DNA from: Candidatus Hermodarchaeota archaeon | GTDB taxonomy: Archaea > Asgardarchaeota > Hermodarchaeia > Hermodarchaeales > Hermodarchaeaceae | Length of the DNA stretch: 18,130 bases | NCBI GenBank assembly: GCA_016839365.1 | Contig: JAEOUH010000080.1 | Location: forward strand, 1 to 18,130 | Direction of reading: 5' to 3' | In this document: positions 4,824 through 8,956 of the stretch, piece after piece | Numbering within the stretch: position 1 is the stretch's first letter | Layout of the letters: every line of letters begins with the position of its first letter | Made by a program: the position numbers and the translations under genes | The notes under the pieces: generated by a model | The model's input: only the letters and a program-made list of their open reading frames with translations | Databases searched by the model: none | Told to the model about the DNA's origin: nothing

Positions 4824-7388
4824 TCAGACTGGATTTTCAATTGCTTCAATCGTCTTCGCAGCATTTTCTGCCAATGCATTCCGTCCGATGACTTCAGCTA
4901 CGCGGTTAATCCCTTGGAGAATGTGCACTTGATTGTCAAGAAAACCAAAGATATCCCCAGGATAGATAAAGAGCTCATATTCTTCAAGGAACGTTGAATT
5001 AATTTGGGAAGGTGTAAGTCCTCGATAACGCAGGGATAAGACGGCCTTAGACACGTTCCAGATCCCACAGTCACAGAAAGGATTCTCATTGCAACGGCAG
5101 TTAAAGAAGTCCACATTCCATTTACTAAATATTCGCAGTACCCAATTGGGAAGCCGCTTCAATCGGCGGCTACGTTTAGCGCTCATTAGATCCAATACTG
5201 CGCCTGCAAATAATCGTGTAGCAAAGCGGGTGCGGAGGGCGCGTTCAATTTCACTTTGTAACCTGGGAGACAGGTACGCATTTCTTAGAGGTTCGAGTTT
5301 GACTGAAAGCTCATCAGCTGTGTTGTGTTTATGTTCTTGAATCGCTGCAACATTCGAGGCTGAAAAATACGAAATCGCCGCCGCGCGACCTAACTCGGTG
5401 GAAATAATATCTTGTTCGACTTGGGTGGCAAGCTTATGTTGCTTTAAAAACTTTAGTGCCTCTGCAAATGTCACTGTACGTGAAAGAAGTCCCTGATAGG
5501 CGTTTTCGAGACGTTTCCGGGATATTGAATCATAACTAGAAAGAGTAGCAAGGAGTTGGTCTACGGACTGCTCGTAGGTTGCTTCAGGATTTACATTTTC
5601 TATTGGATTATTCAACAAATCCAAAGCTACATCTTCTTCGCTCTTTCGTTCGTCTCCGAAGTATCTCCGCCCAATTTCAGCTAATAATACAGCTTTTCCC
5701 ACATCATGTTTTCCAAGCCTACCGGCACGGCCAAGCATTTGCGTGAACTCACCAACGGTCAAGGTCTTGGTTCCCATCATAAGGCTTTGAAAAATAACCA
5801 TACTCGCTGGAAAATCAACACCTGCAGCCAACGCGGCTGTGGTAACCACCACTGCGATTTTACCTGAAGCAAACGCTTCTTCTATTTTGCGACGTTGAGG
5901 GTAGGTCATACCTGCATGGTATGCCCTGGCTGAAATCCGATGTTTCTGCAATTCGGAAGCAATCGAGTGTGTGCTTCGTCGTGAATTGGTAAATACAATT
6001 GTTTGTCCTTGAAAACCATAGGAGCTCTTCTGTTTGAATTCGAACCTCGTAAGATCTGCAATGATTCTGAGTTTATCTGGTTCTGTAAGTACCATAATGA
6101 GGTGGCGCTGCAAGGGTACAGGTCGACCCCGAAGAATCACCGGGACTAAATTCAGCTCTTGAGCCAATTCCTCAGGATTTCCCACGGTTGCAGAGAGAGC
6201 CACTAATTGAGCTTGGGGAAAAAGGCTTCGTAGCCGCGTGATTAACCCATCCAACTCTGGTCCTCGGTCCTCATCAGCGACCATCTGGATTTCGTCGATC
6301 ACAACGACGTTGACATCGCCGAATTTATTTGCTTTACCAGAGCGAAGTAGATAGTCAAATCCCTCATAGCTTGCAACGATGATATTTGCTTCCTCGACTT
6401 CATCGTCAACAATTACCAGTGCTTCATCTCCGACATCAATACCGCTCATGCCAACACGAATGGCAACACGCAGTCCGAGCGGCTCAAATTTTTCACGATA
6501 TTCATGATATTTCTGATTGGCTAATGCCACTAAGGGGGATAAGTAGATGTAGACTTTTCCTTGCATTGCAGCTCTTAATCCGGCTAGTTCGCCGACAAGT
6601 GATTTTCCACTCGTTGTATCTGAGACAGCTAGAATCGATTTCCCATCTAATAATCCAGCATTCACAGCTTTAACCTGAATTGGAAGCAGATATTTTATCC
6701 CAGACCTTTCTAACTCCTCGATAAGCTCTTTTGGAATGGGGAGCGTAGCTACTGGAACCTTTTTCTCAGGATCTTTTACCGCATGAACCTGATCATACAG
6801 AGTCATTGCTGGATTACGACTTGGGCGAAATTGTGACGAAAGAAACGAAACAACCTTTTCCACTGATTTTAGGCGTTGTAACATTGTTTCTAAACTACCA
6901 TATGCTTGCTTGGAAATCTCAACATCTATCGATTGTAGTCGGTTCATCAACTGTTGCGATGCGCATTTGTAACAGACTGGCTGTCCCTCAAGTTGGTAGA
7001 CCTGCTGCTTGCGCAACATCGTTACCTTGCCATCAGCGATGCATGAGCTGCAAGCCCGTACAATCATGGGATCTTTTACGCCAAAATCTCTTAGCATTCC
7101 TTTTAGTTCCGTTAGAAATGGAAAATGTGGTTGTCGAGGGATGGCAATATACTCGGCTTCCCTTGCCCAAGTCACAAAGGTTTGGGGGTTGACTGGACTA
7201 ATTCCTCCCCTTCGAACTAGCCATAATTTCTCTGGTCGCAGTCGCCCTTTTCTCATCACAAGCTGAACACGAGCTCGAAGAATTGGTACATTTGATCGTT
7301 TGGGGCGAAAAATGACGACAAATGCTGCAAGCTCTCGTTTCTGCTCAGGAATTAACGCTAGACTAAAAGGAGGCTTCAATGGTCGCAT
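4824..7388 (-). CDS. Archaea-specific Ski2-like SF2 helicase (ASH-Ski2 / COG1202 / DUF5814-type)
   Basis: Q motif LLPIQ, Walker A TTSGKS, Ia PLVALANQK, II DEIQ, III SAT, IV IVFTNSRR, V TAALAAGVDFPA, VI QMLGRAGR. N-terminal CSSC..CYKC and C-terminal CRCNENPFCDC Cys clusters are typical of this family. Confidence 0.92.
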   Translation of the reverse strand: MRPLKPPFSLALIPEQKRELAAFVVIFRPKRSNVPILRARVQLVMRKGRLRPEKLWLVRRGGISPVNPQTFVTWAREAEYIAIPRQPHFPFLTELKGMLRDFGVKDPMIVRACSSCIADGKVTMLRKQQVYQLEGQPVCYKCASQQLMNRLQSIDVEISKQAYGSLETMLQRLKSVEKVVSFLSSQFRPSRNPAMTLYDQVHAVKDPEKKVPVATLPIPKELIEELERSGIKYLLPIQVKAVNAGLLDGKSILAVSDTTSGKSLVGELAGLRAAMQGKVYIYLSPLVALANQKYHEYREKFEPLGLRVAIRVGMSGIDVGDEALVIVDDEVEEANIIVASYEGFDYLLRSGKANKFGDVNVVVIDEIQMVADEDRGPELDGLITRLRSLFPQAQLVALSATVGNPEELAQELNLVPVILRGRPVPLQRHLIMVLTEPDKLRIIADLTRFEFKQKSSYGFQGQTIVFTNSRRSTHSIASELQKHRISARAYHAGMTYPQRRKIEEAFASGKIAVVVTTAALAAGVDFPASMVIFQSLMMGTKTLTVGEFTQMLGRAGRLGKHDVGKAVLLAEIGRRYFGDERKSEEDVALDLLNNPIENVNPEATYEQSVDQLLATLSSYDSISRKRLENAYQGLLSRTVTFAEALKFLKQHKLATQVEQDIISTELGRAAAISYFSASNVAAIQEHKHNTADELSVKLEPLRNAYLSPRLQSEIERALRTRFATRLFAGAVLDLMSAKRSRRLKRLPNWVLRIFSKWNVDFFNCRCNENPFCDCGIWNVSKAVLSLRYRGLTPSQINSTFLEEYELFIYPGDIFGFLDNQVHILQGINRVAEVIGRNALAENAAKTIEAIENPV

Positions 7389-7479
7389 TGGTGAACACGT
7401 TTCGAATTTGTTTTAGCTCAGGAACCACAAGTAAGGCTTTTTAGTCTTGTCTTACTCTTAGGGTGTTAGGGTTTAGAGA

Positions 7480-8172
7480 GTGCGAAGAATCGAGATATTC
7501 CCTGGAATACTATCACTGATGCTAAGTAAGGCTGCTCGTGCCGGTCGGACGGAGATTGGTGGATTTCTCATTGGAAAAATCGGGCGGAATAAAATCATTA
7601 TTACACGCGCAACCTTTCCACGGCAGAGAGGAACAAGGACACATGTTACTATCAATGATGCTGATATGGCGATTTTGGCCGAGGAGCTGGCTGAGCGGGG
7701 GACAGGTGAAGTAATCGTTGGTTGGCACCATACGCACCCAGGCCTTGGCGTTTTTATGTCAAGTACTGATGTCTCTACACAACAACGATATCAAGCATTT
7801 TTCCCCGAGGCAATTGCCCTTGTTATGGATCCAATGAAGTTCGCTCAAACCCTTGATATGGATGACCTAGACCTTCGCATTTACCGGGTTGATGGTCGGA
7901 AAGAATACGAGCTAGAATATGAATACGCACACAATCCAGCAGAAATCATTCCCGACCTATTTGGTATCATGCTTTCTTTGGAAGAAACTTCAGAAGTTGT
8001 CTACAAAGATACTTGGTTCGAGAAGATGTTACAGGAAGTATTTGGTGAGCGTATAACAACACCTGAGTTTTCCTGGGGGTTAGGGAACTTTTTGGAAGCC
8101 TTTGTTGCCTTCGGGGCTGTGATGCTACTTTGTATTTTTGTGGTCCTTGCGTTGCTTGGGTTATTTGTATGA
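7480..8172 (+). CDS. JAMM/MPN+ (Mov34) metallo-isopeptidase with C-terminal transmembrane helix
   Basis: EIGGFLIG (catalytic Glu), VGWHHTHPGLGVFMSSTD (HxH-x7-S-x2-D) and ALVMDP. Ends in the uncharged stretch AFVAFGAVMLLCIFVVLALLGLFV followed by the stop. Confidence 0.92.
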   Translation: MRRIEIFPGILSLMLSKAARAGRTEIGGFLIGKIGRNKIIITRATFPRQRGTRTHVTINDADMAILAEELAERGTGEVIVGWHHTHPGLGVFMSSTDVSTQQRYQAFFPEAIALVMDPMKFAQTLDMDDLDLRIYRVDGRKEYELEYEYAHNPAEIIPDLFGIMLSLEETSEVVYKDTWFEKMLQEVFGERITTPEFSWGLGNFLEAFVAFGAVMLLCIFVVLALLGLFV

Positions 8173-8254: not shown

Positions 8255-8956
8255 TTACTCTGGTTCGTCAAAGCCTAATGCTTTCAGCGCAGCAAGGATG
8301 GCCTCTTTGTCATCCACAGAAACGTCGTCTACATCGTTACTGGCTTCTGACATGCTGACCGTTTCCAGCCCCGGTTGTTCCACGGGCGTAATCTTTGGCT
8401 CTGCTGGCGTTGGCTGAGTCTCCATAACGGGGGTAATGGTGTCCTCCGGTTCTGCGCTAGGTTCAGGTGTGGGCTCTTTGAATATTGGTTCTGTTGGTAA
8501 TTCGGGCTCACTAATGGTTTCTGCAATAGCTGTATCAGCAGGCATCTTTCGGAATCCAAGAAGTTGCTCAGGTTCGAGTGGATGAGATTCCATGATTTTG
8601 GTGACTTTGGTAGCGTAAATTTTCATGAGGCCGATATAATAGCCAAGACGAATTTGGTCACGACTTGCTCCAACCAGGAGCGTTTCCGGTGTTCCACGCA
8701 TAATTATCGTGAAACCTTTGTTTCCTCTAAGAATCACCTCAGAAAGAGTGCCTTGGCTCAGCTGTCGAAGTGTTTCTTCACCAACATTCACCAGTGTGGC
8801 TGTAGCCGCTGAGAAGATATCGGAGTCAACATCGCCACTTACTGCACAGGCAAGACGAATTCCTTCACGCGTCACAACCGCTAGGGCTTCAAGGCCAGTG
8901 GATTGCTCGATTCGTCGCATGAGGTCTTGTAAGTCTTTAAATGGAGTCTCGACCAT
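8255..8956 (-). CDS. Roadblock/LC7 domain protein with long acidic Pro/Glu/Thr-rich C-terminal tail
   Basis: First ~123 aa fit the Roadblock pattern (LEALAVVTREG, SAATATLVNVGE, LSQGTLSEVILRGNKGFTII, RLGYYI), followed by a low-complexity tail. Confidence 0.9.
   Translation of the reverse strand: MVETPFKDLQDLMRRIEQSTGLEALAVVTREGIRLACAVSGDVDSDIFSAATATLVNVGEETLRQLSQGTLSEVILRGNKGFTIIMRGTPETLLVGASRDQIRLGYYIGLMKIYATKVTKIMESHPLEPEQLLGFRKMPADTAIAETISEPELPTEPIFKEPTPEPSAEPEDTITPVMETQPTPAEPKITPVEQPGLETVSMSEASNDVDDVSVDDKEAILAALKALGFDEPE

Follow-up and report, generated by a model that had tools for sequence, protein, structure and literature searches.

A candidate tail-anchored, Rpn11-like ubiquitin isopeptidase in Hermodarchaeota

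The window analyzed in this study (18,130 nucleotides from a Candidatus Hermodarchaeota archaeon) contains a gene for a JAMM/MPN+ protease, here called Hermod JAMM, in which an intact active site of the Rpn11/CSN5 kind is combined with a predicted membrane anchor at the extreme C-terminus. Based on the computed fold and active site, the anchor and its conservation, the co-occurrence of the gene with ubiquitin (Ub) and E2, and a predicted complex with Ub, this protein is probably a tail-anchored, cytoplasm-facing Ub isopeptidase for deconjugation at the membrane side. The features discussed below are the following.

7480..8172, + strand: whole gene of the predicted tail-anchored Rpn11-like JAMM/MPN+ protease (230 amino acids, GTG start, stop codon 8170-8172; from the open reading frame [ORF] listing and translation)
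7480..7929, + strand: MPN+ catalytic domain, residues 1-150 (Pfam JAB, PDB sequence search, AlphaFold2, and Foldseek)
7552..7554, + strand: codon of E25, the catalytic glutamate in EIGG (invariant in alignment A2; in the predicted Ub interface)
7729..7770, + strand: JAMM motif H84-x-H86-x7-S94-x2-D97, zinc ligands and oxyanion serine (all four invariant in A2; in the predicted Ub interface)
7930..8067, + strand: conserved acidic linker module, residues 151-196, with helix 153-166, flexible part 167-178, and helix 179-188 (alignment A1, secondary structure and pLDDT, charge count)
8068..8169, + strand: juxtamembrane segment and predicted transmembrane tail, residues 197-230 (hydropathy, predicted helix, presence in homologs)
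7433..7448, + strand: conserved TATA-like box, a candidate promoter element (near-invariant columns in an alignment of seven Hermodarchaeota upstream regions)

An alignment of upstream regions revealed that the GTG of this ORF occupies the position at which orthologs have ATG, and the alignment with the archaeal Rpn11-like protein CsRpn11 begins at residue 2. Thus, the GTG start at 7480 is sound, and the database calls of 217 amino acids fall short of the true length.

Catalytic domain and closest relatives

JAB and Prok-JAB were the only Pfam domains detected in Hermod JAMM. The JAB model (PF01398) matched residues 2-109 with a score of 56.9 bits, the cut-off being 22.5; in the genome scan, the score was 59.5 bits. 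An initial annotation made from the letters alone had described a complete JAMM motif, and the comparison with homologs bears this out: E25, H84, H86, S94, and D97 are invariant in alignment A2, which contains 46 sequences down to 26% identity, and the H84-H86-S94-D97 motif pairs with the HSHPGLDVFLSPTD stretch of CsRpn11. Hermod JAMM has an intact site that belongs to the Rpn11/CSN5 kind. This motif context, which had also been pointed out before, agrees with both the PDB ranking and the Foldseek search. The best PDB sequence match was CsRpn11 (6FJV, E-value 6.2e-29), followed by CSN5, Rpn11, and AMSH. The AlphaFold2 model (mean pLDDT 89) shows an MPN fold, and its top Foldseek matches were 6FJU, 6FNN, and 6FNO, with a TM-score on the target of up to 0.89 and an rmsd of 2.0-2.4 Å. 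All top Foldseek matches are MPN+ enzymes. The N-terminus consists of a strand (residues 3-6) and a helix (residues 8-21) of this fold with a highest hydrophobicity of 1.01, and a signal peptide was absent from it according to hydropathy, the AlphaFold2 model, and the CsRpn11 alignment.

CsRpn11 of Candidatus Caldiarchaeum subterraneum has been experimentally shown to be a Ub protease (PMC6043591). The two proteins are about 35% identical over the core, CsRpn11 (6FJU, 6FJV, 6FNN, 6FNO) being the best match in both sequence and fold. They have the JAMM motif in common and, in our model of Hermod JAMM, also an Ins-1-type contact with the Ub tail; Hermod JAMM is likewise monomer-sized, and its post-core helix corresponds to H4. 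On the other hand, CsRpn11 is a soluble protein of 202 amino acids, for which the paper mentions no membrane segment (PMC6043591), whereas Hermod JAMM ends in a predicted transmembrane helix. The solubility of this closest characterized archaeal relative fits the earlier remark that the characterized enzymes of this type are soluble. In addition, CsRpn11 is encoded in a Ub operon and matures a Ub precursor with a nine-residue extension, whereas the Hermodarchaeota gene is located outside the Ub cluster, and the Ub of this organism needs no maturation.

PDB ranking, fold ranking, and tree all place Hermod JAMM nearer to CsRpn11, Rpn11, and CSN5 than to JAMM1/2, that is, with the archaeal Rpn11-like group (Fuchs et al. 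2018). The operon with Ub, E1, E2, and RING of that group is not matched here, the components being located elsewhere in the genome. Eukaryotic Rpn11 (PSMD14) and CSN5 have the MPN+ core and the motif context in common with Hermod JAMM (56-58 bits in the PDB search). However, their representatives carry a C-terminal domain, whereas no RPN11_C or CSN5_C domain was detected by Pfam in Hermod JAMM, and an MPN- partner paralog was not found in the Hermodarchaeota genome. Localization would also be achieved differently, by a bilayer anchor in Hermod JAMM and by assembly into PCI complexes in the eukaryotic proteins.

AMSH is soluble and is brought to membranes by its MIT and STAM-binding regions. 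AMSH, AMSH-LP, and Sst2 have the JAMM core in common with Hermod JAMM (50-54 bits), and the removal of Ub where ESCRT works at the membrane resembles the function proposed here, which is a functional analogy only. Neither an MIT domain nor STAM/ESCRT-III-binding regions were found by Pfam in Hermod JAMM, whose tether would be its own transmembrane helix. The JAMM1 desampylases (HvJAMM1 and PfJAMM1; 5LDA) belong to the same JAMM metalloprotease superfamily but to a different subfamily.

C-terminal tail and acidic linker

The protein ends in a run of 24 uncharged residues (207-230, nucleotides 8098-8169) which reaches the stop codon. The maximum of the 19-residue Kyte-Doolittle (KD) profile is 3.06 at residues 208-226; a simple sum on the Hessa scale gives -4.7. 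In the AlphaFold2 model, residues 194-229 form a single helix with pLDDT values of 90-97 across the last 30 residues, and a scan of the whole protein revealed no other segment with KD of at least 1.6. Together with the N-terminus, which belongs to the MPN fold, these data agree with the uncharged tail and the lack of a signal peptide noted in the initial annotation. The transmembrane call is based on hydropathy scales, conservation, and the confident AlphaFold2 helix 194-229. Only 2 of 1,928 ORFs in a crude set from this genome have just one hydrophobic segment, placed at the very C-terminus, and the second of them resembles the final part of a secreted repeat protein. Considering this rarity and the presence of the tail in every full-length homolog that was examined, the combination of a JAMM domain and a C-terminal tail is more than a chance arrangement.

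It had been proposed that conservation of the tail among homologs would be informative, and the tail is indeed widely conserved. It is present in all 32 close homologs and in all 34 nearest named loci (Hermod-, Hel-, and Heimdallarchaeota), including two complete Heimdallarchaeum chromosomes, and was also detected in six further families of the phylum, in which the linkers are unrelated. Approximately 40 of the best 150 representatives at 50% identity have it. In 37 representatives, the hydrophobic run is 19-28 amino acids long and is followed by 0-9 residues, and the mean number of K/R is 2.8 upstream versus 0.24 downstream of the helix. In Hermod JAMM itself, the upstream enrichment is weak, with 0 K/R in the 15 residues preceding the helix. 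The identity among tails (13.4%) is no higher than that of shuffled sequences (13.1%), suggesting that the tail is kept as a physical property and not as a sequence. As judged from sequence, the tail qualifies as a conserved anchor at the C-terminus and shows what is typical of tail-anchored proteins, namely a lone C-terminal transmembrane segment, nothing after the run, and no N-terminal signal sequence; the same type of evidence indicates that an architecture of JAMM domain plus C-terminal anchor is widespread in Asgard archaea and not peculiar to this gene. To our knowledge, all characterized JAMM deubiquitinases are soluble and are taken to their workplace by partner proteins. No description of a membrane-anchored archaeal JAMM protein was found in the full-text literature available outside subscription journals.

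Co-occurrence with Get3- and EMC3-type factors had also been anticipated, and candidates for both are present in the genome: an ArsA/Get3-family ATPase gene, apparently split over two contig ends, and an EMC3/DUF106-family gene, either of which may be involved in insertion.

The segment between the catalytic domain and the tail had been described as an acidic linker of approximately 60 residues. Its acidity is evident (18 D+E versus 7 K+R in residues 121-195), but it is not a featureless spacer. Alignment A1 of Hermodarchaeota sequences revealed an invariant IPD (residues 157-159), an invariant WFE (residues 179-181), and a near-invariant TTPEF, and two helices are predicted. This module is specific to the Hermodarchaeota family; in other lineages, linkers have different sequences and lengths of 9 to 128 amino acids. 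A scan of residues 151-214 for strongly amphipathic 11-residue segments found none above 0.55, and we therefore do not propose an in-plane membrane helix. The stretch EDTWFERML was considered as an MIT-interacting (MIM-like) motif and rejected because its spacing, compared by eye, is off the consensus.

Ubiquitin genes and genomic context

Ub and ESCRT components had been expected to be encoded by this organism. The genome contains genes for Ub, E1, E2, and RING which adjoin genes for UEV-Vps23, Vps28, and EAP30, that is, ESCRT-I/II components (contig C71); a gene for a Yip1-like membrane protein also adjoins the Ub genes. This cluster does not include a JAMM gene. Hermod JAMM is located on contig C60, between a helicase gene and a Roadblock gene. 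Its neighbors (a DEAD helicase with DUF5814, a Roadblock protein, and an Orc1/Cdc6-like gene) are conserved solely within Hermodarchaeota, where the order helicase, JAMM, Roadblock, Orc-like, tes is complete in all loci. We rejected a functional link based on this neighborhood, as no part of the order occurs in the Hel- and Heimdallarchaeota loci; it reflects lineage synteny.

Among sampled Asgard families outside the window's own, 10 have the Rpn11-like JAMM, E2, and Ub together, 4 have none of them, and 1 has E2 and Ub only, whereas no family was found to have this JAMM without E2. The suggested co-occurrence with a Ub system is thereby borne out in the sampled families. Moreover, in 17 of 17 genomes of the window's own family, the stop codon of the Ub gene directly follows a terminal GG, implying that deconjugation rather than maturation is the likely job of the enzyme.

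The catalytic domain is also predicted to form a complex with the Ub encoded in the same genome. The modeled Hermod JAMM-Ub complex scored 0.92 and the best of 3 controls 0.00; this is a model only, and since similar complexes are already solved (CsRpn11-CsUb 6FNN, Rpn11-Ub 5U4P, and AMSH-Ub), the score may stem from resemblance to these and not from binding by the Hermodarchaeota copy. Of 80 solved complexes, 58 reached this mark, compared with 2 of 110 mismatched pairs, counts which are rough because an own alignment was used. The runs agreed in at least 98% of contacts, with a partner pLDDT of at least 92. The predicted interface includes E25, H84, H86, S94, and D97 and residues 70-78 of Ub, the tail of which lies in the active site.

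Putative function and alternative explanations

A reasonable hypothesis is that the N-terminal 150 residues of Hermod JAMM act as a zinc-dependent, CsRpn11-like MPN+ domain which binds the Ub of this archaeon. The Ub tail, with its GG end, would be laid across the Ins-1 strand into the E25/H84/H86/S94/D97 site, and the bond after Gly78 of Ub would be hydrolyzed. The linker of approximately 45 residues with its two helices and the C-terminal transmembrane helix would keep the enzyme within a few nanometers of the inner membrane face. The protein would be inserted after translation, in the style of tail-anchored proteins, and insertion might proceed via the ArsA/Get3-family ATPase or the EMC3/DUF106-family insertase. 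Given the conserved anchor and the fact that this is the sole enzyme of its type in the lineage, Ub is probably removed at the inner membrane face. As Ub is encoded in its mature form and no second Rpn11-type enzyme is known from the lineage, the job would be deconjugation and recycling of Ub at the membrane. The substrates may be membrane proteins or, alternatively, any ubiquitinated protein nearing the membrane. The most likely setting would be beside the Ub-binding ESCRT-I/II machinery which is encoded next to the Ub genes.

A rather less likely explanation is that Hermod JAMM is a general housekeeping enzyme which recycles Ub from any conjugate, for example with a membrane-recruited proteasome or Cdc48 unfoldase, and that the anchor only restrains or regulates it but neither selects membrane-protein substrates nor couples the enzyme to ESCRT. 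The protein is the sole PF01398 match in its own genome, whose assembly is approximately 84% complete, and the sole strong Rpn11-type JAMM in 19 of 19 genomes of the family searched, so that all Ub removal of this type would pass through it. This incomplete assembly could lack a second Rpn11-type gene, but none was found in the 18 relatives. Short soluble Asgard Rpn11-like proteins (L038, L039, and L041; 144-149 amino acids, without linker or tail) fall in the same clade as Hermod JAMM in the JAMM tree, and most sampled genomes having such a protein carry a single copy. Unlike the Hermodarchaeota gene, which is unlinked to ESCRT genes, they are encoded in Ub-ESCRT clusters, adjoining E2, UEV-Vps23, RING, and Ub genes. 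The presence of these soluble orthologs in the Ub clusters of other lineages argues for one shared core function. On the other hand, a fixed tether which is kept in most sampled lineages in spite of divergent linkers is hard to explain unless position matters, and the location of Ub genes beside ESCRT-I/II and Yip1-like genes points to a membrane-centered Ub system, which favors the proposed membrane-side isopeptidase.

With similarly low probability, the membrane-side isopeptidase could be assigned a more specific part, the cargo-deubiquitinating step of Asgard Ub-ESCRT sorting (a counterpart of AMSH/Doa4), with anchoring as the ancestral state of the Asgard Rpn11-like lineage, from which the soluble, complex-embedded Rpn11/CSN5 of eukaryotes were derived. 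Ub removal would then have started at the membrane. In the phylogenetic analysis, which the initial annotation had called for, Hermod JAMM falls in an Asgard clade whose sister group is formed by the eukaryotic Rpn11 and CSN5 representatives (SH-aLRT 89 and 82). A single origin of the anchor was considered and is not claimed here. A tree of 58 rows needs just 3 changes, whereas a larger tree with more architectures and eukaryotic references forces at least 4, these being imposed by strongly supported branches; the Asgard backbone of the larger tree is poorly resolved.

The closest archaeal relatives of eukaryotic Rpn11/CSN5 would carry a built-in membrane anchor. The Hermodarchaeota lineage, in which Ub genes are intermingled with those for ESCRT-I/II, has no other enzyme of this type than the anchored form. 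If Hermod JAMM is active and membrane-bound, reversible ubiquitination in these archaea would be centered on the membrane, and pre-eukaryotic Ub-dependent membrane sorting would gain a concrete and assayable component. Archaea would also gain a defined tail-anchored client for studies of Get3/EMC-type insertion. As the soluble domain is small and a relative of it has been crystallized, the key experiments should be straightforward.

It is improbable that the enzyme acts on a target other than Ub, such as a ThiS/MoaD/SAMP-type or Urm1-like modifier or an unrelated membrane substrate. The genome does encode five ThiS/MoaD-family proteins and four ThiF-family E1-like enzymes, the Hermod JAMM gene lies outside the Ub cluster, and JAMM enzymes of other archaea are desampylases. 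However, the match to the NCBIfam model desamp_Halo is weak (16.7 bits, far under the cut-off of 130), and no JAMM1 structure was found among the PDB matches at E-values up to 0.01. The genome also has a distinct JAMM1-type gene (contig C21), whose best solved relative is PfJAMM1 (5LDA). The presence of JAMM tracks Ub and E2 across families, and the complex modeled with the genome's own Ub scores above the controls. In addition, CsRpn11, the nearest characterized enzyme, cleaves Ub and not SAMP precursors (PMC6043591). Thus, the original proposal of a Ub- or SAMP-like modifier shifts toward Ub, the genome having, along with the five ThiS/MoaD-type proteins, a separate JAMM1-type enzyme as another candidate for SAMP-type work.

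Rpn11 buries its C-terminal helices in the proteasome lid, and CSN5 likewise uses its C-terminal helices in assembly. By analogy with these assembly helices, and given the PEF motif which precedes the tail in all Hermodarchaeota sequences, the hydrophobic C-terminus could be a helix buried in a complex or a cleaved PEF-CTERM/archaeosortase signal instead of a stable anchor, but this is very improbable, as the hydrophobicity of the 24 uncharged residues (KD above 3) far exceeds that of amphipathic bundle helices, RPN11_C was undetected, PEF is absent from the tail-bearing orthologs of other lineages, there is neither an N-terminal signal peptide nor a basic cluster after the helix, NCBIfam sorting-domain models were unmatched at residues 120-230 or 170-230 with E-values up to 10, and an exosortase/archaeosortase match (PF09721) was not found in the 84%-complete genome. 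A PEF-CTERM sorting signal was rejected on account of the last two results.

The TATA-like box, a candidate promoter element, is located approximately 32-47 nucleotides 5' of the start codon of Hermod JAMM, within a divergent intergenic region of 91 nucleotides. No RNA datasets containing the stretch were listed, and the DNA datasets which contain it are sediment, soil, and mangrove metagenomes.

Gene model, active site and C-terminal tail

The studied gene encodes the JAMM protein listed here with its two neighbours:

7480–8172, + strand, anchored JAMM gene (230 aa, GTG start, from ORF listing and translation)
8255–8956, − strand, Roadblock/LC7-domain protein (long, acidic tail rich in Pro, Glu, and Thr), converging on the JAMM gene
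4824–7388, − strand, DEAD/Helicase_C protein (854 aa, DUF5814 domain at the C-terminus), divergent from the JAMM gene (91-nt spacer)

The pairing with the Roadblock/LC7 gene was observed at all Hermodarchaeota loci and was absent outside them. The GTG is the first start codon past an in-frame stop, orthologues have ATG at this position, and the alignment with CsRpn11, the soluble Rpn11 homologue of Caldiarchaeum subterraneum, starts at residue 2; thus, the start is sound, and by the same alignment the 217-aa database gene models beginning at Met14 are too short.

Pfam JAB (PF01398) matched residues 2–109 with 56.9 bits (cut-off 22.5). The complete JAMM motif reported in the initial annotation is present (E25, H84, H86, S94, and D97), and all five residues are unchanged across an alignment of 46 sequences, in which the lowest identity is 26%. 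The 24 uncharged residues said to reach the stop codon were located at 207–230, where the 19-residue Kyte-Doolittle maximum is 3.06. As had been suggested, the N-terminus is no signal peptide; it supplies strand 1 and helix 1 of the MPN fold. In a crude set of 1,928 ORFs from this genome, a single hydrophobic segment at the extreme C-terminus was found in only two, the JAMM ORF and one that looks like the final part of a secreted repeat protein. What had been described as an acidic linker of ~60 residues is indeed acidic (18 D+E and 7 K+R in residues 121–195), but it is not a plain spacer: it has two predicted helices and forms a conserved module specific to the Hermodarchaeota lineage, in which the IPD and WFE motifs are invariant and TTPEF is nearly so.

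An AlphaFold2 model built on a 46-row alignment (mean pLDDT 89) contains the following elements:

1–150, MPN fold
153–166, helix
167–178, low-confidence stretch
179–188, helix
194–229, one long helix

Distribution of the tail and related architectures

The nearest named records come from Hermodarchaeota MAGs (50–95% identity), among whose proteins the JAMM protein nests in trees. The C-terminal transmembrane segment postulated earlier proved to be conserved: it is kept in 32/32 aligned close homologues, including three gene models of 169–170 aa that are short at the N-terminus only, and in 34/34 nearest named loci (18 Hermodarchaeota-type, 3 Helarchaeota-type, and the rest Heimdallarchaeota, two of which lie on complete Heimdallarchaeum chromosomes). 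Among further genomes of the phylum, families f2, f3, f4, f8, and f13 have the tail, as does one f7 genome out of two, and the linkers there are unrelated in sequence.

An exhaustive profile search over 1.84 billion 50%-identity representatives yielded 80 proteins at E ≤ 1e-30, and approximately 40 of the best 150 representatives were tail-anchored. In 37 tail-anchored representatives, the hydrophobic run spans 19–28 residues, follows a linker of 9–128 residues, and leaves 0–9 residues (mean 0.8) behind it; the mean K/R count is 2.8 over the 15 residues preceding the run and 0.24 following it. Identity over the last 22 residues (13.4%) is close to that of shuffled tails (13.1%) and the hydrophobic run is kept; what is conserved in the tail is thus its physical character rather than its sequence, the pattern expected of a membrane anchor.

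One f7 orthologue (L035, G024:C1) has no transmembrane tail and a polybasic end (…KKLYRRKDTIFKERKRRKIIT), and its sister in G034 retains the tail; the anchor of L035 may have been swapped for an electrostatic membrane-binding tail. A second membrane layout was found in the same JAMM clade (P0132, P0142, P0147, P0160, and ~20 more representatives), in which an N-terminal JAMM domain is followed by a single transmembrane helix near residues 170–220 and by 150–550 residues of Ig/PKD-type domains that would be extracellular, a receptor-like layout. P0113 (472 aa) and P0129 (510 aa) contain two tandem JAB/MPN domains plus a C-terminal transmembrane tail and are reminiscent of an Rpn8-Rpn11-like pair that has been fused and given a membrane anchor. 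Most of loci L080–L123 represent a separate soluble JAMM family (373–426 aa) from many MAGs filed as Promethearchaeota, Thor-, Hod-, or Odinarchaeota, with no counterpart in the Hermodarchaeota genomes searched. Three Planctomycetota/Pirellulaceae records (L084, L090, and L118) have a short Rpn11-like JAB beside E1- and E2-like genes as well as a second, longer JAMM protein with transmembrane segments; these bacterial proteins form a very long branch among soluble Asgard forms. Mis-binning or mislabelling is likely for L066, a Helarchaeota-type gene with a bacterial MAG label (Candidatus Deferrimicrobium), and for L055 and L063, labelled Odinarchaeota and Thorarchaeota, which show full synteny with Hermodarchaeota loci.

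Relationship to Rpn11 and CSN5

CsRpn11 was the best solved relative by sequence (6FJV/6FJU, E 6e-29), followed at 54–58 bits by COP9 signalosome subunit 5, proteasomal Rpn11, and AMSH, in agreement with the Rpn11/CSN5-type motif context recognized initially; no structure of the JAMM1 (desampylase) subfamily was among these matches. CsRpn11 structures also ranked first in Foldseek (TM-score on target up to 0.89, rmsd 2.0–2.4 Å). CsRpn11 is an experimentally characterized ubiquitin protease of 202 aa, a monomer in solution, and its paper does not mention a membrane segment (PMC6043591). The Hermodarchaeota protein has a similar core but, unlike soluble CsRpn11, carries a C-terminal anchor. Such an anchor would be hidden in the clustering of that study because all sequences were trimmed to the JAMM core (PMC6043591). 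No description of a membrane-anchored archaeal or Asgard JAMM was found in the literature outside subscription journals.

For phylogenetic analysis, eukaryotic Rpn11 and CSN5 representatives were picked by their RPN11_C and CSN5_C domains, and a long-branched JAMM1-type protein of the same genome served as outgroup. The eukaryotic enzymes formed one clade (SH-aLRT 89), sister, under a weak rooting, to one Asgard clade (SH-aLRT 82) that takes in anchored, soluble, TM-Ig, and 375-aa forms. The strongly supported branches cannot be explained with fewer than four anchor gains or losses and the Asgard backbone is not resolved, so a single origin of the anchor is possible rather than demonstrated.

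The JAMM core (residues 1–150, own alignment) was also folded with ubiquitin of this genome, giving a model score of 0.92 (best of three controls, 0.00); in a benchmark that is rough, an own alignment being used, this mark was reached by 58/80 solved complexes and 2/110 mismatched pairs. At least 98% of contacts agreed between runs, and partner pLDDT was at least 92. The predicted interface comprises E25, H84, H86, S94, D97, and strand 54–58 of the JAMM core and residues 70–78 of ubiquitin. Since similar complexes have already been solved (6FNN, 5U4P, and AMSH-ubiquitin), this result indicates likeness to them, not binding by this particular copy.

Ubiquitin system and possible function

Ubiquitin and ESCRT components, expected from other Asgard archaea, are encoded in this genome (2.2 Mb, about 84% complete) by a canonical cluster on another contig, with no JAMM gene inside it:

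C71, locus L013:6568–12830, Ub-ESCRT cluster
one side: Yip1-like membrane protein, E1 with Ub-like domain, E2, Ub, RING
divergent side: 178-aa ORF, UEV-Vps23, Vps28, EAP30-family protein

The Yip1-domain protein has an N-terminal zinc ribbon and converges on E1 with an 8-bp overlap. The 178-aa ORF, between RING and UEV-Vps23, may correspond to a protein that bioRxiv 2023.07.25.550441 calls asCOG005522.

The suspected co-occurrence was evident when counted by sampled family, the window's own being left out and bare counts being given because relatives are not independent: Rpn11-like JAMM, E2, and ubiquitin occur together in 10 families, all three are missing from 4 (f5, f6, f11, and f16; genomes 77–98% complete), E2 and ubiquitin occur without JAMM in 1 (f14; 84% complete), and JAMM without E2 in none. 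Short soluble orthologues (144–149 aa) adjoin E2, UEV-Vps23, RING, and ubiquitin genes, whereas anchored forms are encoded away from them. Ubiquitin ends in TEGG with the stop codon immediately after it, both in this genome and in 17/17 family genomes where it was found; thus, the role in ubiquitin maturation demonstrated for CsRpn11 (PMC6043591) is not needed here, leaving deconjugation.

The favoured hypothesis is that the MPN+ domain lies on the cytoplasmic side, where the ~45-residue linker and the tail anchor would hold it at the inner membrane face, and that it strips ubiquitin from those conjugates it can reach. The fold, the active site, the anchor, and the co-occurrence with ubiquitin were established computationally; catalysis, topology, insertion route, and substrates are inferred. 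This genome has a single PF01398 match, the anchored protein, and in 19/19 family genomes the anchored protein is the sole strong match (45.9–60.2 bits; remaining matches ≤28.5 bits), which agrees with a housekeeping ubiquitin recycler anchored for restraint or regulation only, although such a role explains the persistent tether less well. A non-ubiquitin substrate is disfavoured by the subfamily assignment, by the co-occurrence pattern with E2 and ubiquitin, and by a separate JAMM1-type gene (best solved relative PfJAMM1); together with five ThiS/MoaD-family proteins and a Prok-JAB/ThiF/transglutaminase cluster (contig C45, L014:6114–9181), the latter gives SAMP-type chemistry its own candidate enzyme. 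A C-terminus that is a cleaved PEF-CTERM signal or a buried assembly helix is also disfavoured, and the PEF-CTERM reading was rejected on test: the tail matches no sorting model, no archaeosortase was found in this incomplete genome, signal peptide and basic C-terminus are both absent, and the PEF motif is limited to Hermodarchaeota sequences.

At L014, a 207-aa Prok-JAB protein overlaps a 293-aa ThiF-family E1-like gene beside a 533-aa transglutaminase-core protein, and the three may form a small conjugation or deconjugation system of their own. For a tail-anchored deubiquitinase, candidate insertion factors in this genome would be the products of an EMC3/DUF106-family gene and an ArsA/Get3-family gene, the latter assigned at family level since these tools do not separate ArsA from Get3. 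ArsA/Get3-family fragments lie at contig ends (C51:10201–10803, model 103–304; C25:2–436, model 2–142) and are probably one gene split by assembly.
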